The position numbers were made by a program, and so were the translations under genes. From Myxococcota bacterium (lineage in GTDB: Bacteria > Myxococcota_A > UBA9160 > UBA4427): a stretch of 64,000 nt of DNA. Each line of letters begins with the position of its first letter. The stretch's first letter is position 1. The stretch lies in the NCBI GenBank assembly GCA_965250285.1, contig OZ252299.1, positions 2,912,001 through 2,976,000 on the forward strand, written 5' to 3'. The notes below the pieces were generated by a model, which saw only the letters and a program-made list of their open reading frames with translations, had not been told where the DNA came from and made no database searches. Below are positions 54,888 to 64,000 of this stretch, piece by piece.

Positions 54888-55277
54888 CTGCCGCCTTCGA
54901 CGACACGCCGCGCCTGCGGACGAAGCTCACGCGCGTCGGGCGACCCGACGGTGCTCTTGGCCGCCCGGTTGCGTGTGGGTTGCCGGTGGATCGAAGACCG
55001 AGCGCAGATCGGATCGCCGCCGGCGCGACACCGACGCGCAGCCCCGAGGCCGCCCCGACGAACACGAAATGGCACGAGGTCAGCTTCGCATCACGAAAAG
55101 ACGCACAGCGAGCCCAATCAAGTGACCCAACCCATCCCTGACAGCGGATCGTCGTGCACGTCGAATTCGCGAACGCGACGCTGGCCGCTTCCGGTATGCT
55201 GGCCCGAACCCCAGCCGCGTCGGCACCCCGGGATTCATCCGGCCGCAAACCCGAGTCGACGCGACCACGAGAAGCGC

Positions 55278-58121
55278 ATGTGCCACCGAAGCCCCCGCCT
55301 CGAGTTCCGAATCGCGCTGTGCGTGATCAGCTGGCTGTGCGCAGCCGGCCTGGCGAGCGCGACCGAGCCCGTCGTCTTTCACAGCCCGACCGATGATGGC
55401 GCCGGCGCTCCGGGCTTCGTCCTCACCGCCCCGAATGCGACGCTCAACCTCTGGCTTCGCCCCGGCGACGTGCCCAGCGAGTCGAGCCAGATCGTCTGCG
55501 TCAACGGCAACGGTGACGAGATCTGCGGTTTCGACCTCGTGCTTCTCGCGAGCGGCAGCTTTCGGTTGAGCTCGTTCGAGCCCGACTCGGAGAACGACGT
55601 GGTCGCGGGCCCCGTTTCAGCGACTGATCTACGGCTGAATCGCGTTGCCGGCCTGAACCCCGACTCGGCGCCCGTGCGCATCGGGACGCTCAGCGTCTTT
55701 CGCTTGAGTGATGACCCCGGTGAGCTCCGCGTCTCGCCCGAGAGCCTGGCGGTCGATGCGTCGGGGGAGCTCATCTCGATCTCGGACGAAGAGGCGATCG
55801 CCCTGCCCGAGCCGTCCGGCGCTCTGGGTCTCGTTGCGGGCGCGTGCACGCTGGTCGCGCTCAGGCGTCGACGGCAGCGCGCGACGATGCTGCTGCTGGC
55901 GCTCGTGTCCCTGCTCTTCGTCCCGACGGGCGCCAACGCCGACTCGACGAGCTTCGAGACCGGGTACGCCGAAGGCGATCTCGTCACCACGGTCGACTTC
56001 CCGACCAATCGGGTTCGGATCCAGGGCCAGGGCCAGATCCGGATCGGTGAGATCGGGCTGCCGACCGTGGCCTTCGAGCCCAACGACACGCATCAATTCG
56101 CCGACCCCTTGAATCAGCGGTTCTTCATCTACGACACCACGGGTCAGACGACCGGCGGGCCTCGGGACGGCTACGTCTTCGAGTTCGAGAAGCCGGTCGA
56201 GTCGTTCGGCATCGTTCTGCTCGACTTCAACCAGGAGGCAGGCCCCCCGGCCGTGCCGCTCGGGGCCACCGCGCGGATGCGGGCGTATGGTGACTATGCC
56301 CGCACCCAGCTGCTGAGCGAGCAGACCGCCACGACGAACTCGAGTCAGCCCGACGGCAGCGCGTTCATCTATCCGGCGGCGCCGGTGACGTCCGAGATTC
56401 GCGCTGTCACCCTCGAGTTCGATCAGAGCGAAACCACCACCGGCATCTCGGGCATGATCTTCGAGACGGTCACCGACACCGACTTCGACGGCGTCTTCGA
56501 TCCGTTCGACAATTGCCCCGACTTCTACAACCCGCAGCAGGAGGACGGCGACGGCGACGACGTCGGCGACTTCTGCGACAACTGCCGCTACACCTCGAAC
56601 CCGGCGCAGACCGACACCGACCAGGACGGCGAGGGAGACCTCTGCCAGCCCGCGACGATCATCGGTGAGGTGCAAGGCGACCAGAGCGGCCCCAAGCAGT
56701 TCCAGGTGTTCCTGCAGTGCAACGCGCGGCCGATCCGCACGATGTCGTTCGGCGTGCTCGTGCCCTTCGGCTCGAGCGTCGAAGAGAGCGGCGTGCTCTT
56801 CGGCGACTGCGGCCTGCCCCCGAACCCGCCGCCGGGCGTGCCCGCCGGCGGCGGCTGTACCGGCACCCTCGGCCCCACGGTTTCGCCGGGCGATTCGGGC
56901 GTCTGGTCGTCGAACGTCGGCGTCGGCCCGCCGTGGCACCAACGCGCGGTCTACCTCACCGTCAGCGGCACGGGCAAGGAAGGCGCGCTCTGCGAGCCCT
57001 TCGAAGGGCCGGTGCCGATCGCACAGTTCTTCTACGAGTTCGACGTCAACTTCGAGGGCCAGTCGGGCTTCGTGGTCGACGGCTTCGCCGACCAGGGCGA
57101 GCCGGTTCTCGAGACGATCGAGGGTGAGCCGTCCGAGTACGAAACGGTGTCGTACTTCATCGTCTCCGATCCGGTCCCCCCGCCGCAGCTCGAGCTGCTG
57201 CTGCAGCCGGCAGCCGGGGAGCCCGCCGGCTTCGAGACGCGCTGGAACCTCTGCATGTCGAGCGACCTGGGCAACCTGATGAAGCGGGTCAGCGTGGGGG
57301 TGCACGTCGAAGACTCGACCATCAACGACATTCGCGTGATCGGCTGCGACACGCCGGACGTCGGCGAGTTCAAGCGTGAGTGCACCAGCACCGTGGGGCC
57401 GCACGTCGACTTCTCGAAGTCGTTCACCCAGGGGCCGTTTCCGAGCGACATGGCACCGCTCGGCGCGGACACGCTCTACATCGCGCTCGAGGGTTCGACG
57501 CCGACGTTCGACGGCCCGACGCTCAACCCCTCGCCCACCGCCGAGACGTGTGTCGCGACGATCGAGATCGATATCCCGCCCGGCGCGGAGGGGGTGCAGC
57601 CGACGCTCGTCAACGCGGGGGTCGACACGCTCCCGTTCGACGATGGCGAGGCCGAGGGCTACCTGCGCTCGACCCTGAGCCCCACGCCCGACCCGATCTC
57701 ACTGTTCGAGGTCTATCTGGCCAATGGGCTCGACGTCGGCGAGGACTACGACAACGACGGCCACCTCGATTCGGCCGACAACTGCGTCTTCCGCGCGAAC
57801 GACCTGCAGAACAACGGCGATTTCATGAGCGCCACGCCGAACTTCGACGACGACGGCGACGCCTGCGAATGCTCCGACACGAACGGCACGGGAGCGATCT
57901 TCGACGAGAGCACCCCCGACCCGGTGACGGGCGCTCCCTCCGACCTCGCGAAGATGCGAGACTATCTGGCGGGTCGCGATCTGAGCGAGAACATCGCCCA
58001 GACGTGCAGCGTCGCGGGGAGTCCCGAATGCGACATTCAAGATGCCGTCGTGCTGCAGCGCGCGCTGGCGGGCGCACTGCCGGGGATCGAGACGCGCTGT
58101 GATGCTGCGCTCCCCGACTGA
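55278..58121 (+). CDS. Exported acidic surface protein with internal PEP-CTERM-like motif, second signal peptide, thrombospondin type-3 repeats and dockerin-like C-terminus
   Basis: Signal peptide to ASA; LPEPSGALGLVAGACTLVALRRRRQR at aa 176-201; DTDFDGVFDPFDNCP..NPQQEDGDGDDVGDFCD repeats; CDIQDAVVLQRAL. Confidence 0.8.
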   Translation: MCHRSPRLEFRIALCVISWLCAAGLASATEPVVFHSPTDDGAGAPGFVLTAPNATLNLWLRPGDVPSESSQIVCVNGNGDEICGFDLVLLASGSFRLSSFEPDSENDVVAGPVSATDLRLNRVAGLNPDSAPVRIGTLSVFRLSDDPGELRVSPESLAVDASGELISISDEEAIALPEPSGALGLVAGACTLVALRRRRQRATMLLLALVSLLFVPTGANADSTSFETGYAEGDLVTTVDFPTNRVRIQGQGQIRIGEIGLPTVAFEPNDTHQFADPLNQRFFIYDTTGQTTGGPRDGYVFEFEKPVESFGIVLLDFNQEAGPPAVPLGATARMRAYGDYARTQLLSEQTATTNSSQPDGSAFIYPAAPVTSEIRAVTLEFDQSETTTGISGMIFETVTDTDFDGVFDPFDNCPDFYNPQQEDGDGDDVGDFCDNCRYTSNPAQTDTDQDGEGDLCQPATIIGEVQGDQSGPKQFQVFLQCNARPIRTMSFGVLVPFGSSVEESGVLFGDCGLPPNPPPGVPAGGGCTGTLGPTVSPGDSGVWSSNVGVGPPWHQRAVYLTVSGTGKEGALCEPFEGPVPIAQFFYEFDVNFEGQSGFVVDGFADQGEPVLETIEGEPSEYETVSYFIVSDPVPPPQLELLLQPAAGEPAGFETRWNLCMSSDLGNLMKRVSVGVHVEDSTINDIRVIGCDTPDVGEFKRECTSTVGPHVDFSKSFTQGPFPSDMAPLGADTLYIALEGSTPTFDGPTLNPSPTAETCVATIEIDIPPGAEGVQPTLVNAGVDTLPFDDGEAEGYLRSTLSPTPDPISLFEVYLANGLDVGEDYDNDGHLDSADNCVFRANDLQNNGDFMSATPNFDDDGDACECSDTNGTGAIFDESTPDPVTGAPSDLAKMRDYLAGRDLSENIAQTCSVAGSPECDIQDAVVLQRALAGALPGIETRCDAALPD

Positions 58122-58133
58122 GTCGGTCGCCAC

Positions 58134-60806
58134 ATGAAGCAGTGGGCGGTGCTCGTCGGAGCACTGTGCGGATCGCTCGCGCTGCTGGGCCCACAGGCCG
58201 AGCTCGCCCGGGCCGACGTCGTCTTCGACGGAACGCTCGGGGCCCCCGGACCCGCGCCGACGCGCCCGCTCGACGGGCGCACCGACTTCATGATCGAGCA
58301 GAGCCGCGGCCTGCGCATCGCGTCGGGCGGCCGGGCGAACCTGTTCCACAGCTTCTCGACGTTCGACCTCGCCGCCGATCAGAGCGCGAGCTTCATGGCG
58401 ACCGACCCGGTCGACACGATCCTCGCTCGCGTGACGGGCGGCGACCCGACGACCATCGCCGGCCTGATCCGATCCGAGGTGCCCGGCGCCGATCTGTTCC
58501 TGATCAATCCGATGGGCATCACGCTCACCGAGACGGCGTCGCTCGATCTGCCCGCCTCGTTCATCGCCACCTCGGCCGACTTCATCGAGCTCGACGACGG
58601 CAGCGTCTTCCCCTCGACCGCGACCGTGCCGACCGTGACCGCCGCGGCGCCGAGCGCGTTCGGGTTTCTCGGCGGCGACGTCGCGGGAGCCCTCGTCATC
58701 GAGGGCGAACGCGCGCTGACGCTCGAGCGCGGCTCGACGTTCGCGCTGGTCGGCGGCGATGTGGGCGTGCGGGACGGATCTCGGGTGTTTGCGAGTGGCG
58801 GTCGCATCGACGTGGCCGCGGTGGGGAGCGCGGCCGTGGTCGTGCCCCTGAACGTGGGCGACTGGCATCCGCGGGCCGACGGCACGGCCGGGCTCGGCGA
58901 GGTGCGCGTCGATGGCTTCGAGGCCGAGCTGCACGCCTTCGACCTCGCCAACCCCAGCTCGAATCAGGGGCAGATCGTGGTCCGGGGCGGGGTCTTCGTC
59001 CTCGAGACGAGCTTTCTCCGGGCAGGAGGCGATGGCCCGGCCACGACCGCGATCGACATCGAGACCACCACCGGCGTCGAGGTCGACAACGCCGGGGTCC
59101 AGACCTTCGGCGCCGGCGCGGCCGGCGTCGGCGGCATCCGCGTCGACACCGACACGCTCTCGGTGTCGCAGGGATCGGTCTCGGGCATCGCGAGCCGCAA
59201 CGTCGGCACGGGCGCCGCCGGTCCCATCGAGATCACGGCGGGTCGCGTCGAAGTCCGCGCCGCCGGCCAGATCCAGAGCGATGCCGACGGCCCCGGGGAC
59301 GGCGCGCCCATCGTGATTCTGGCCGACGTGATCGAGCTCGATGGCGGCGCCGCGATCCAGACCGACACGACGAACGCCGGCCGGAGCGGCAGCGTCACGA
59401 TCGTCGCCGATCAGATCATCGCGACCGACCTGAGCGAGATCTCGAGCCGCACCGACGGGCTGGGCTTCGTCGGCAACGATGCGGGCGACGTCTCGATCAC
59501 CGCGCGGACGATGGAGCTGCGCTCCGGTGCGCGCGTCTCGGGCACGACGGACGGCAGCGGACGCGGCGCAGACATCGATCTCGACATCGAGGAGAGCCTG
59601 CTGCTCGATGGCGACTTCGTGATCGGCGGAGGCCCGGTGCTGCCGTCGGGCGTGTTTGCGCGCTCGGGCGTCGACGCCGGATCACCTGCGACCGGGGACG
59701 GCGGCGACGTGACCATCGACGCCGGTACGATGACGATCTCGAACGGCGCGCAGATCGCCGCGAGCCCGCGCGGTGAGGGCAACGCCGGCGCGATCACGAT
59801 CACGGTCGACGACACGTTCCAGATCTTCGGCGAGGGCCAGCTCCAATCGGGCGTCTTTGCGCAGGCCGTCGAGGGCGATGGCGGCGCGATCACCGTGACC
59901 GCGGACACGCTGTTGCTGAACGACGGCGCGCGCATCGAGTCGGCCGCGCTCTCGACGGGCAACGCGGGCGACATCACGCTCGTCGGCGAGACCATCGTCC
60001 TCGACGGCGACGTGCAGGTGAACGCGCGGTCCGAGTTCGAGGGTGCGGCCGGCGACGTCACGCTCCGGGGCGACACGATCCGAGTCGCCAACGGCGCGCG
60101 GATCCTGTCACTGACCGAAGCAGATGGCGCGGCCGGCAACATCAACTTCGAACAGGGCGACGTCGTCCTGGAGAGCGGCGCGACGGTCGACGCCGAGTCG
60201 CTCGGGACGCAGCCGGCCGGCAACGTCAGCTTCAACGCGGCGTCGGTGCGCATCGGCGACGCGGCGCGGGTGTCGACGCAGTCGGTGGTCAGCCAGGGCG
60301 GCAACGTCGACGTCGACGTGAGCGGGACCTTCGCCGTCGATCCCGGCGGCGTGGTCATCACCGACGTGCGCGGCCCCACCGGCGGCGGCGGAGACGTCAT
60401 CGTGCGCGCCGAGTCGGTCGTGATCAACGATGCCACCGTGACGGCGAACGCCAACGCCGTCGACGCCGAGGCCGGCAACCTCTTCTTCCAGGTGCGCGGC
60501 GGCTATTTCGAGTCGACGAACGCGACGGTCACGGCGAACAACCCGCAGGGCGTCGACGGCACGGTGGTCATCGATGGTCCGGTCGACCAGGTCGTCGGCG
60601 ACCTCGTCTCGCTCGACGGCGACTTCTCGGACGCCTCGGACCAGCTCGAGACACCCTGCGTCGCCCGAGGTAGCGCGAGCGGCAGCTTCTCGGTGCAGCG
60701 CGAGCGCGCGCCGCCGCCCCCACCCGACCAGCACCTCGACCCGGCCGCGCCGTCGAGCGGCCCCGAGTTCGACCCGGGTCAGGGCCGCTGCGAGACCGCG
60801 CGATGA
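58134..60806 (+). CDS. TpsA / filamentous-haemagglutinin-family exoprotein
   Basis: Signal peptide; TPS domain NLFHSF...ARVTGG...LFLINPMGI; G(N/D)(A/G)G.I.I beta-helix repeats; C-terminal PC...GSF motif. Confidence 0.9.
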   Translation: MKQWAVLVGALCGSLALLGPQAELARADVVFDGTLGAPGPAPTRPLDGRTDFMIEQSRGLRIASGGRANLFHSFSTFDLAADQSASFMATDPVDTILARVTGGDPTTIAGLIRSEVPGADLFLINPMGITLTETASLDLPASFIATSADFIELDDGSVFPSTATVPTVTAAAPSAFGFLGGDVAGALVIEGERALTLERGSTFALVGGDVGVRDGSRVFASGGRIDVAAVGSAAVVVPLNVGDWHPRADGTAGLGEVRVDGFEAELHAFDLANPSSNQGQIVVRGGVFVLETSFLRAGGDGPATTAIDIETTTGVEVDNAGVQTFGAGAAGVGGIRVDTDTLSVSQGSVSGIASRNVGTGAAGPIEITAGRVEVRAAGQIQSDADGPGDGAPIVILADVIELDGGAAIQTDTTNAGRSGSVTIVADQIIATDLSEISSRTDGLGFVGNDAGDVSITARTMELRSGARVSGTTDGSGRGADIDLDIEESLLLDGDFVIGGGPVLPSGVFARSGVDAGSPATGDGGDVTIDAGTMTISNGAQIAASPRGEGNAGAITITVDDTFQIFGEGQLQSGVFAQAVEGDGGAITVTADTLLLNDGARIESAALSTGNAGDITLVGETIVLDGDVQVNARSEFEGAAGDVTLRGDTIRVANGARILSLTEADGAAGNINFEQGDVVLESGATVDAESLGTQPAGNVSFNAASVRIGDAARVSTQSVVSQGGNVDVDVSGTFAVDPGGVVITDVRGPTGGGGDVIVRAESVVINDATVTANANAVDAEAGNLFFQVRGGYFESTNATVTANNPQGVDGTVVIDGPVDQVVGDLVSLDGDFSDASDQLETPCVARGSASGSFSVQRERAPPPPPDQHLDPAAPSSGPEFDPGQGRCETAR

Positions 60807-62506
60807 GCGCGCATCGCCTCACCCGATGCTCGGCCGGATGGGCGGCGATCGCGCTGCTCGTGCTCGCCCCGTCGCCGGCGTCGGCGCAGGATCTGGGCGT
60901 CGATCCGGGCGAGGTCCGCCCCACCCTGCCCGCGCCGCAGGCGCCGGGCGAGACCGACCTCACCCTGCCCCCCCTCGAACAGGGGCCCGTCGATCGGCCG
61001 GGCGAGCTCGCCGTGCCCATCGAGCGCGTCGTCGTCACCGGGAGCACGGTCTTCAGCGACGCCGAGATCGCCCGCGCGCTCGAGCCCTTCGTCGGCCGCC
61101 CGATGACGTCGGCCGATCTCACCGCGGCGCGCGATGCGCTCACCCACCTCTATGTCGATCACGGCTACGTGACCTCGGGCGCCGTCGTGCCCGATCAGCA
61201 GATCACCGCCGGCACGCTCACCCTTCACGTCATCGAAGGCGCCGTGAGTGAGATCGAGATCGAAGGCAACGACCGCATCCGCGATGCGTACCTTGCGCCC
61301 AGGCTGCGCGCGGCGACCCGCGCACCGGTGCAGCTCGGTCGCGTGCGCGAGACGCTTCGAAGACTGCAGAACAATCGCTACATCGAACGGATCGATGCAC
61401 ACCTCGAGCCGGGCGCACGACGCGGCGAGAGCAGACTCGTCGTCACGGTGCACGAAGCGGCTCAGTGGGCGCTCGCCCTCGAAGTCGCGAATGACCGGTC
61501 GCCCACCGTCGGCAGCACCGGCATCGCGGGCGACGGGACGATCGCGAACGTGATCGGCGTCAACGACGTCTGGCGGCTGCGCGTGCAGGCGACGCGGGGT
61601 GTCCTCGACATCGACGCGCGCTTCGAGGTTCCGATCACGCGGTTCGACACGATCTTTCGCTTCGAGCTGCGAGATACACACATCGAAGTCGTCGAAGACC
61701 CGTTCGACGTGCTCGACATCGAAGCCGAGGGCCGTCGCTACGGCCTCTCGATCTTCCATCCGCTCCTCCGCCGAGGCGATCACTCGCTGTGGCTCCAGCT
61801 GACGGGTGAGTACGAGCAGCAATCGTCGACGGTGCTCGGCCTGCCCTTCTGCTTCGAGCTCTTCCTCGAAGACTGCGACGAGCCGACCATCGCCGCGCTG
61901 CGCGGGGGGCTGCAGTACACGTGGACCACACAGCGCAACGTCGTCTCGGCCCGCGCGCTGTTCTCGGGCGGGCTGCCGATCCTCGGCGCAACGACCGGCG
62001 TGCCAAAAGATCGCCCCGATGGCCAGTTCTTCGTCTGGCTCGGACAGACCCAGTGGGCCCACGTGCTCCCCGACGCCGCTCTGCGCTCGACGCTCCTGCT
62101 TCGCGGTGACCTGCAGCTCGCCAACGATGCGCTGCTCGGCCTCGAGAAGATCGCGATCGGGGGGCGCCGCACCGTGCGGGGCCACCGAGAGAACCAGCTG
62201 GTTCGCGACAACGGCGCCGTGTTGTCGGGCGAGGTCCGCGTGCCCGTCTGGCGCACCTCGCTCGATCGACCCGTGCTCGAGCTCGTGCCGTTCATCGACT
62301 GGGGCTATGCGTGGAACAACGGCATCGACCCGCCGCAGAATCAGCTCTGGAGCATCGGCGCGGGGTTCCGCTTCATGCCGTGGAAGGGGACGCTCGGCGA
62401 GTTCTACTGGGGCAGCCACATCGACACGAAGCGTGACCGAAAGACGGACCTGCAGGATTACGGGATCTCGTTCAGGGTGAGGATCGATGCGCCTGAAGTG
62501 TTCTAG
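60803..62506 (+). CDS. TpsB (ShlB/FhaC/HecB) outer-membrane transporter
   Basis: POTRA VTGSTVFS...YVDHGYVTSGA..PDQ...VIEG; TVRGHREN (VRGY-like loop 6); C-terminal Phe; ATGA overlap with tpsA. Confidence 0.92.
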   Translation: MSAHRLTRCSAGWAAIALLVLAPSPASAQDLGVDPGEVRPTLPAPQAPGETDLTLPPLEQGPVDRPGELAVPIERVVVTGSTVFSDAEIARALEPFVGRPMTSADLTAARDALTHLYVDHGYVTSGAVVPDQQITAGTLTLHVIEGAVSEIEIEGNDRIRDAYLAPRLRAATRAPVQLGRVRETLRRLQNNRYIERIDAHLEPGARRGESRLVVTVHEAAQWALALEVANDRSPTVGSTGIAGDGTIANVIGVNDVWRLRVQATRGVLDIDARFEVPITRFDTIFRFELRDTHIEVVEDPFDVLDIEAEGRRYGLSIFHPLLRRGDHSLWLQLTGEYEQQSSTVLGLPFCFELFLEDCDEPTIAALRGGLQYTWTTQRNVVSARALFSGGLPILGATTGVPKDRPDGQFFVWLGQTQWAHVLPDAALRSTLLLRGDLQLANDALLGLEKIAIGGRRTVRGHRENQLVRDNGAVLSGEVRVPVWRTSLDRPVLELVPFIDWGYAWNNGIDPPQNQLWSIGAGFRFMPWKGTLGEFYWGSHIDTKRDRKTDLQDYGISFRVRIDAPEVF

Positions 62507-64000
62507 CTGCGCCTTGGCCACGACCGGCGCGTTGGCGTTCCTGCTGGGAGCGGCCGGCGGCGCGTACGCCCAGGACGCGGCCGCGACCGATGCCGAAGTC
62601 GCGATCGAACGCAGCGAGCGCACGGCGGCCCCGGCCGAACCGGATTCGGCAGCGGCACGCACCGCGCTCTACGACGAAGCCAACGCGGTGCGAGACCGCA
62701 TCGAAGCGAACCAGGTCGAGGGCGCGCAGGCGACGCTCGGAGCGCTCGCCGAACGCATCGACACCCTCGCCCGCCTGAGCGACCGAGCCCACGTCGCGAT
62801 CCATCTCGGCCGCAGCGAGATCGAGCTCGGCGATCGCCAGCCAGCCGCCGCGCGCGATCAGAGCCGCCTGCGCGCAGCCCGCCTCTTCGCCCGCGCCGCG
62901 GCCGACGCCGAAGAGTGTGACGATGCCCGCCTCGCCGCCTATGCCTGGGGCTACCTCGCCGAACCCTATCTCGACGCGGGGCGGATGGGCGACGCCCGCG
63001 TCGCCACCGAGCGGGCCATCGAGTACGCCGCCCTCGCGGCCGCCCCGGATGCCGAGTACCGATTTCTCGCTCAGCTGGGGGCGATCTTTCGCCGCGAGGG
63101 CGACCTCGACGCCGCGATCGCGGCCGACCGGCGCGCGGTCGCCATCGTGGCGCGGCTGAGCGAAGACCTCGCGTCCGACTCGTTGGCCGCTTCGTTTGCC
63201 TTCCGCGAGCAGGTCGAGCCGGTGTACACGTCGCTCGTCGACGCCCTGCTCGCGCGCGCGGCCCAGTCGACGCCCGAGACGGCGCAGCCGCTGCTGCGCG
63301 AAGCGCGCGACACGCTCGAAGCGCTGAAGACGGCCGAGCTGCGCGATCACTACGGCGACGACTGCCTGGCTTCGCAGCAGCGCGTCGCGACCGACGATCT
63401 GCCCGGGGCGGTCGTGCTCTACCCGGTGATCCTCCCCGACCGGGTCGAGCTGATCGTCGGGGCGGACGGCGTGCTGAGCCTGCACCGATCGCCGATGCCG
63501 CCCGACGCGCTCGACGCACAGGTGGGCCAGATGCGCCGCTTCGTCGCCTCGGCCATGACCCGCCGCTACCTGCGACCGGCGGCGGCGCTCTACGCCGGGC
63601 TGATCGCCCCCATTGCCGACCGACTCGACGACGCCGACGTGCTCGTGGTCGTGCCCGGTGGCGCGCTGCGGACGATCCCCTTCAGCGCGCTCTACGACGA
63701 AGCCCGCTCGGCGCACTTGATCGAGGACATCGCGGTCGTCACGAGCCCGGGGCTCTCGCTCACCGAGCCGCGCCCCTTCAGCGGCAAGGACACGCCGGTG
63801 CTCGCGGCCGGGCTCAGCGAGGCGCGCCTCGGCTTCAGCGCCCTTCCGAGCGTCGACACCGAGATCGAAGGCATCGCGGCGAGCTTCCCGACCACCGAGC
63901 TGATGAACAGCGCGCTCACCGGCGAGCGGCTCGACGGTGAGGTGGCGAGCCAGGCCGTGGGGGTCGTGCACATCGCGACCCACGCCGAGTTCGACGCCGA
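62487..64000 (+). CDS. Exported TPR + CHAT (caspase HetF associated with TPR) protease, 3' truncated by the window
   Basis: Own translation from ATG 62487 (GAGGA RBS): signal peptide to AYA-Q, TPR-like helices, FREQVEPVY, ALKTAELRDHYGDDC, LYPVILPDR, VVPGGALRTIPFSALYD, VVHIATHAEF (catalytic His). Not in the ORF track because there is no stop in the window. Confidence 0.88.
   Translation, partial: MRLKCSSCALATTGALAFLLGAAGGAYAQDAAATDAEVAIERSERTAAPAEPDSAAARTALYDEANAVRDRIEANQVEGAQATLGALAERIDTLARLSDRAHVAIHLGRSEIELGDRQPAAARDQSRLRAARLFARAAADAEECDDARLAAYAWGYLAEPYLDAGRMGDARVATERAIEYAALAAAPDAEYRFLAQLGAIFRREGDLDAAIAADRRAVAIVARLSEDLASDSLAASFAFREQVEPVYTSLVDALLARAAQSTPETAQPLLREARDTLEALKTAELRDHYGDDCLASQQRVATDDLPGAVVLYPVILPDRVELIVGADGVLSLHRSPMPPDALDAQVGQMRRFVASAMTRRYLRPAAALYAGLIAPIADRLDDADVLVVVPGGALRTIPFSALYDEARSAHLIEDIAVVTSPGLSLTEPRPFSGKDTPVLAAGLSEARLGFSALPSVDTEIEGIAASFPTTELMNSALTGERLDGEVASQAVGVVHIATHAEFDA

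Follow-up and report, generated by a model that had tools for sequence, protein, structure and literature searches.

A Myxococcota reading frame with an internal PEP-CTERM tag and a second signal-like segment: a putative secretory polyprotein of cohesin anchor and docking cargo

PEP-CTERM sorting tags were defined as C-terminal, with cleavage proposed (the passages concerned in Haft et al. 2006, PMC1569441), and the locus studied here raises the question of what such a tag does in the middle of a protein. The window analysed is a stretch of 64,000 nucleotides from a Myxococcota bacterium (contig OZ252299.1, positions 2,912,001 to 2,976,000). The element in question is an open reading frame (ORF) encoding 947 amino acids (aa) at 55278..58121, from an ATG at 55278 to a TGA stop at 58119–58121. 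An earlier note had proposed that its product may be a surface polyprotein, from which exosortase and signal peptidase I would yield an anchored N-terminal domain and a released cargo that might dock back onto it. Our analysis supports this interpretation, every testable step of which held. We consider it probable that the product of the ORF is a secretory polyprotein, cleavage of which gives an anchored cohesin and a cargo, the two being predicted to bind each other.

The internal tag and the second signal segment

Translation of 55278–58121(+) gave 947 aa with zero internal stops (positions are those of the window, and all its features described here lie on the plus strand). The product opens with a Sec-type signal peptide (aa 1–28, 55278..55361) that was read from the sequence; it has A-x-A at its end, immediately before 55362, and the domains of related proteins start in register with this point. 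A 147-aa domain, a PEP-CTERM unit (aa 176–201, 55803..55880), a second segment (aa 202–221) and 726 further residues follow in that order. The tag is composed of LPEP at aa 176–179 (PEP at 55806–55814), a hydrophobic stretch at aa 180–195 and an Arg cluster at aa 196–201. TIGR02595 matched aa 177–200 above its cut-off of 16 bits, scoring 16.4 bits when the full protein was searched and 20.7 bits with aa 1–202. The internal tag running in frame into a second signal-like segment is thus present as the note had described it, and 746 residues follow the Arg cluster, unlike in a PEP-CTERM as defined.

The genome is a single 6.25-Mb contig. Contigs from 3/3 sequencing runs bridged the junction with neither a mismatch nor a gap; these are contigs rather than raw reads, and the runs are three samples from one study, one of them possibly the source of this assembly. 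Since all three runs have a contig that spans it unchanged, the junction is not an assembly slip. Nor is it a product of chance, because 59 ORFs of 38 genomes have this domain followed by this junction, as expected if homologs keep the in-frame fusion.

These 59 ORFs were found with a profile of the N-terminal domain, which gave 112 matches in 66 of the 193 genomes of the order. We fetched 102 of the 112 (the ten left out were mostly the weakest); 60 of the ORFs have 250 aa or more after PEP, 31 end at PEP, six are without PEP and five are unclear. One of the 60 long ORFs, L160, was dropped for want of a second signal, leaving 59 fused ORFs in three families. Among 401 genomes sampled from the phylum, 28 had a match, and every one of these belongs to the same class. 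Word-indexed protein searches returned the query alone or nothing, which is no evidence of absence because the relatives are near 30% identity, and a scan of genome contigs gave two loci.

P-E-P was invariant in all 58 aligned fused junctions, which had been selected on that motif. At E ≤ 0.01, TIGR02595 matched 34 of the family's 58 internal tags, compared with 12 of its 31 terminal ones; the internal tags are therefore not decayed. The genome also encodes the enzymes that the proposed scheme needs, with six exosortases (PF09721 matches over cut-off, with Cys in the conserved motif region) and one signal peptidase I, and one GspD scored over cut-off. A pattern scan of the genome gave 78 matches to PEP, helix and Arg cluster, about 70 near a C-terminus and six internal with a signal-like segment after them. 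A seventh internal case came from a profile search, and three of the seven share the N-terminal domain of the 947-aa ORF. Four ORFs with an internal PEP-CTERM and a second signal are without the cohesin (G000:C1 2850730-2852520(+), 960376-962079(+), 4479517-4482477(+) and 1404321-1410743(+)); two of them also close with a terminal PEP-CTERM, as tandem surface proteins, and in the others the junction is followed by a beta-helix-like domain in one case and by a very large protein in the other.

The retention of the tag bears on one alternative, in which signal peptidase I alone cuts. The cargo would be freed and would dock, and the cohesin would be kept in the inner membrane by an uncut helical hairpin, its internal tag lying beyond the reach of exosortase. 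A signal peptidase I cut would by itself be enough for the functional outcome, and no report of exosortase cleavage of an internal PEP-CTERM was found in the literature searched. However, PEP is kept across cohesins that are ~30% identical, and none of the six family members without PEP has a helix-Arg-helix hairpin by inspection. An analogy also speaks against this alternative: in the fusion protein HVO_0405, a tripartite signal in the middle of the chain was found by experiment to be cut by the archaeosortase ArtA, which is homologous to exosortases (in the relevant part of PMC7157517). We regard cutting by signal peptidase I alone as unlikely.

The second segment would be a Sec/signal peptidase I-type signal that takes the Arg cluster as its n-region (aa 196–221, 55863..55940). 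It has a basic n-region, a short h-region and small residues at −3/−1, and closes with A-N-A, placing the predicted mature start at D222 (55941). Ordinary signals of this type stand at the N-terminus of the chain, whereas this one is internal. AxA followed the hydrophobic core in 47 of 59 internal segments; the count was 55 of 74 for the family's own N-terminal signals and 32 of 120 for helices of polytopic membrane proteins (Fisher p 1.4e-11, for kin that are not independent). A comparison of hydrophobicity with membrane helices was set aside, its controls having been picked for high hydrophobicity, and the AxA count alone was used. The linkers between the two helices are strongly basic, with 335 K/R and 19 D/E among 797 residues and a median length of 10 residues, and the second segment aligns in register with the signal that stands free at the N-terminus of split relatives. 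The sequence statistics therefore support the earlier assignment: the internal segment resembles cleavable signals and is unlike membrane helices.

This resemblance has to be set against the possibility that the chain stays uncut, as a two-helix hairpin protein of the inner membrane with large periplasmic parts, its dockerin folding onto its own cohesin or linking neighbours. The topology permits such a protein, and in some related proteins a cohesin and dockerin-like modules share a chain that is not cut (see below). In contrast, the shortness of the second segment, the AxA count and the register with the free signal of split sister genes all argue for cleavage, and an anchor–docking pair would be of little use to a chain that stays whole. 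An uncut chain therefore appears decidedly improbable.

The linkers also bear on whether the cargo could come mainly from an internal start, or the fusion be a sequencing error over two genes. The linker of the 947-aa ORF does hold an in-frame ATG, M204, but this is without a Shine-Dalgarno-like word and a start there leaves no basic n-region. Across the family, 41 of 59 linkers have no in-frame ATG, GTG or TTG and a Shine-Dalgarno-like word occurs in 3 of 59; an internal start is not a general explanation, given how many linkers are without a start codon. As for an error, the fused relative G091 still has its old ATG and a Shine-Dalgarno-like word, and this single, very recent fusion could be one. 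In contrast, the three runs agree on the junction studied here, and clades of 12 and 22 rows in the family tree are entirely fused. We give these explanations very little chance.

The cohesin-fold domain and its dockerin-like partner

The domain between the first signal and the tag (aa 29–175, 147 aa, 55362..55802) has a cohesin fold, as judged from its predicted structure. The AlphaFold2 model, built from a 19-row alignment, reached a predicted local distance difference test (pLDDT) value of 91.7. The top Foldseek matches were cohesins (best E 2.6e-5), and VIA-align placed 122 residues on 6kgc_A with a Z of 12.1 and a root-mean-square deviation of 2.9. Its top 13 rows were all cohesin entries, with the nearest non-cohesin at Z 10.4; PDB entries 3ul4, 4dh2 and 2zf9 were among the fold matches. 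Identity to solved cohesins is 7–15%, a 91-row profile compared with PDB sequences had no cohesin among its matches, and Pfam PF00963 (Cohesin) matched 0/19 family members. Because Pfam Cohesin did not match, we treat the domain as a divergent, Cys-containing family.

The ORF closes with a dockerin-like module (aa 860–947, 57855..58118) that is preceded by a thrombospondin type 3 (TSP3) repeat. A 14-row profile of the module found type I dockerins in the PDB, with E 2.1e-7 to 5nrm_B and further dockerins too, and Dockerin_1 (PF00404) matched 3 of the 14 members. By family profile, the C-terminal end is dockerin-related, as had been supposed. The two intact Ca-binding loop-helix repeats of a type I dockerin were not found in it. 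Instead, the second Ca loop is replaced by a loop flanked by near-invariant Cys, of which the last Asp alone is kept. The terminal Cys is invariant, and the first loop of the copy studied here carries an insertion.

Co-folding of the N-terminal domain and the C-terminal module, proposed earlier as a check, gave 0.73 with Ca (runs 0.87, 0.70 and 0.73) compared with 0.00 for the best control; the mark set for such co-folds was reached by 116 of 157 solved pairs and 2 of 215 mismatched pairs. At least 90% of contacts were common to the runs, and the partner pLDDT was at least 63. On the dockerin side, contacts are concentrated at residues 61, 62, 64, 65, 68 and 69. These include positions 10, 11, 17 and 18 of the second repeat, which we take to be the usual recognition positions of a dockerin repeat. 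The modelled complex is in keeping with binding between the two modules, although its score may owe something to likeness to solved complexes, and it does not separate cognate partners from close cousins.

The two modules are also linked in the genomes. A dockerin-like module is found in the same ORF in 45 of the 59 fused cases and in the next ORF in six more, and five other fused ORFs end at the edge of a contig or fetched stretch. Among the 31 terminal loci, 18 have dockerin modules somewhere in the fetched stretch. The genome of the 947-aa ORF has exactly three such cohesins and three such dockerins, every pair in one ORF. The two paralogous cohesin-PEP-signal-cargo-dockerin ORFs lie at G000:C1 456542-470737(-) and 4460853-4462733(+); one of them, a frame of 4732 codons, is rich in FG-GAP-type repeats and has a TSP3-M2-dockerin tail as in the cargo studied here (M1 and M2 are cargo domains described below).

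Linkage and co-fold together bear on a further alternative, that the chain is cut as proposed while its cohesin and dockerin mostly bind other partners, such as paralogues or the internal domains M1 and M2, which would build chains, 1:1 self-docking not being the purpose. The three paralogous pairs in the genome would provide partners, M1 and M2 may be cohesin-like (a lead only), the interface columns vary and the co-fold is blind to cognate versus close cousin. On the other hand, 51 of the 59 fused loci keep cohesin and dockerin linked, the fetched stretches of the terminal loci just counted include dockerin modules too, and no profile link joins M1/M2 to cohesins. We judge docking mainly on other partners at least as improbable as an uncut chain.

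Distribution, origin and cargo of the fused genes

Ordinary genes with a terminal PEP-CTERM make up about a third of the family, and several of them have a separate dockerin gene after them; fusion is therefore common and not obligatory. In one clade, a lamin-tail-like/CotH cargo with a dockerin is a separate gene in five loci and fused in two. The start codon of the cargo overlaps the stop of the cohesin gene in all five split loci. In the fused loci, G091 and G136, the alignment has a 2-bp gap just before this overlap, and G136 is without the ATG. From the alignment of split and fused loci at the stop/start overlap, we infer that the second signal is the former N-terminal signal of the next gene. 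A quick maximum-likelihood tree built from 89 cohesins requires 11 changes between the fused and the terminal state, of which at least four are forced by well-supported branches; the tree leaves out L159, L160, the six PEP-less and the five unclear rows, and is silent on direction (fusion or fission).

The anchored piece would not always be small. In nine fused members (L032, L033, L095, L102, L104, L110, L113, L117 and L119) the frame is open for more than 400 codons before the cohesin begins. In the two inspected, L032 and L033, an FG-GAP-type region precedes the cohesin, so that the anchored piece would also have a large domain.

Several related loci were noted in passing. A cohesin-PEP ORF, L042 (G008:C383 start), leaves its contig end at the Arg cluster, and the closest homolog of the cargo studied here, L040 (G008:C116 start), enters from another contig end; the two are probably one fused gene split by assembly. 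At G000:C1 5181098-5181984(-), a canonical Pfam dockerin gene adjoins a weak Pfam-cohesin PEP-CTERM gene in a split, classical layout. Two further weak cohesin PEP-CTERM genes lie at G000:C1 2691187-2693297.

The predicted released cargo (726 aa, aa 222–947, 55941..58118) was delimited from the sequence. Its first domain (aa 222–397, 55941..56468) has unnamed Atlas matches (0.91); no homolog was found in the fetched loci and no relative is named. TSP3 Ca-binding repeats follow at about aa 398–457 (56469..56648). PF02412 was over its cut-off here and, in all, in four stretches of the 947-aa protein, and an MtsC TSP3 region was placed at aa 392–458. The next part (56649..57722) comprises two related Cys-containing domains, M1 (aa 458–632) and M2 (aa 636–815), which hhalign pairs at 98.4% and which are common to many cargos. 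Their Atlas match (0.91) is to a cluster with PF00963 in 13% of its members, and M1/M2 are possibly cohesin-like, which we note as a lead only; profile comparison, hhalign included, gave no link to the N-terminal domain, nor one to PDB sequences. A kinship of M2 with the cohesin family was considered and rejected: the first matches were to neighbouring ORFs, the M2 profile misses the cohesin proteins tested and hhalign was negative.

By their first 200 aa, the cargos of the fused ORFs form 13 groups. A scan of 14 representative cargos found a GDSL hydrolase, CotH kinase, FG-GAP, RCC1-like repeats and beta-helix. No glycoside hydrolase family was found in the 947-aa protein or these 14 cargos, and the layout is not that of a cellulosome, in which a scaffoldin with many cohesins bears glycoside hydrolases.

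Around the ORF, a putative sigma-54-like −24/−12 element lies ~200 nt upstream (55070..55084 (+)) and is peripheral to the argument. The pattern has two plus-strand matches in the window; among 89 family genes, three have one upstream where about one is expected, and the element is not conserved. On the same strand downstream (58134–63998) are a TPS/haemagglutinin-domain protein, whose gene begins 12 nt past the stop of the 947-aa ORF, a ShlB/FhaC-type outer-membrane transporter and a CHAT-domain protein.

The processing scheme and known systems

In the scheme that we favour, the first signal would take the cohesin through Sec. The PEP-CTERM helix would then halt transfer, with the arginines kept in the cytoplasm and orienting both helices, and the same arginines would serve as n-region of the second signal, restarting export. 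Signal peptidase I would cut after A221 and free the 726-aa cargo, and exosortase would cut at PEP and anchor the 147-aa cohesin, the two-helix linker being discarded. Finally, the dockerin-like end of the cargo would dock on the cohesin. Anchor and cargo would be made 1:1, because one chain yields both and the cargo docks back.

Several observations weigh against this scheme. Exosortase cleavage and anchoring of PEP-CTERM proteins are described as proposed or inferred in the passages concerned of three papers (PMC1569441, PMC11980579, PMC12188702). For the second segment, the AxA count is our own crude statistic on related sequences and not SignalP, and the window behind the first (PEP) helix also gave AxA in 28 of 59 cases, which we attribute to its overlap with the linker. 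The C-terminal module of the 947-aa ORF alone has no Pfam match, and its model (pLDDT 71.6) has dockerin chains as its top Foldseek matches, but at E ≥ 0.21. The co-fold, for which our own alignments were used, may pass through likeness to (memory of) solved cohesin–dockerin complexes, and conservation in the predicted interface columns does not exceed that in the other columns (p 0.32 and 0.73). Three of the 53 complete fused ORFs have no dockerin match in or beside them.

The same side of the balance includes chains without a PEP junction that carry the cohesin family together with EF-hand/dockerin-like modules. These account for all seven matches of another order of the class (L163–L169) and for four loci of this order (L097, L135, L138 and L149), with TSP3 repeats between the modules. 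Because the two modules share uncut chains there, their separation is not required in every use. Such chains could link head to tail or serve as adaptors; in L167 the dockerin stands directly before the cohesin.

A broader proposal goes further, and we hold it tentatively, as possible but slightly less than evenly likely. The ORF would be one instance of a lineage-wide, self-assembling surface-display cassette, in which signal peptidase I and exosortase cuts yield a lipid-anchored cohesin and an exchangeable cargo. These would be rejoined through a new, disulfide-clasped dockerin variant, possibly in the periplasm with the cargo riding out by type II secretion, and at least 13 kinds of cargo would have been captured by repeated loss of a stop codon.

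Bacterial polyproteins processed by housekeeping export enzymes have rarely been described. As sorting tags are defined as C-terminal, annotation takes such genes for single membrane proteins. The junction would offer a clean assay for whether and where exosortases cut PEP-CTERM proteins, since an internal tag shifts product size by hundreds of residues. The layout would also bring cohesin–dockerin display into a Gram-negative lineage, and it suggests how 1:1 surface display could be designed with a single gene.

No description of a one-gene layout of cohesin, internal PEP-CTERM, second signal and dockerin was found in the literature covered, with subscription papers and supplements outside that coverage. 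The word 'internal' is absent from the main text of Haft et al. 2006 (PMC1569441) as accessible, and in a word search of the Haft myxosortase preprint 'internal', 'cohesin', 'dockerin' and 'polyprotein' were absent.

Among known systems, PEP-CTERM/exosortase substrates are alike in having an N-terminal signal, a secreted domain, PEP with helix and Arg cluster, and exosortases in the genome. They differ in that here the tag lies 746 residues before the C-terminus, with a second signal and a second protein after it. A closer parallel is Haloferax volcanii HVO_0405, described in the passages concerned as a strain-specific fusion of two genes (PMC7157517, PMC9263693). In both cases two former genes are joined, with a central tripartite signal for an enzyme of the exosortase family, the cut having been shown for HVO_0405, and the size shift from its internal signal made that protein a useful ArtA reporter (PMC7157517, in the same part). 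HVO_0405 is unlike the present ORF in having an archaeal PGF signal and being a Tat substrate, and the passages on it mention no docking pair. In contrast to its strain-specific occurrence, the fusion described here is kept in 38 genomes with many cargos.

Single-cohesin anchors, such as Clostridium thermocellum OlpA/OlpC and Ruminococcus flavefaciens ScaE, likewise pair a surface-anchored cohesin with a secreted dockerin partner. Those systems are encoded by separate genes in Gram-positives and use SLH or sortase anchors. Here, the host is diderm, the anchor is a PEP-CTERM and both partners lie in one ORF, with a Cys-rich cohesin and an altered second Ca loop in the dockerin. In the structural polyproteins of enveloped viruses and in Bradyrhizobium FbcH, an anchoring helix and an internal signal, together with basic residues, lie between two exported products, with neither a sortase-type cut nor cohesin–dockerin re-association. 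The layout described here is real and conserved and has apparently not been described before; in it, known parts (an exosortase tag, a signal peptidase I signal and a cohesin–dockerin pair) are joined in a putative one-gene precursor of anchor plus cargo.

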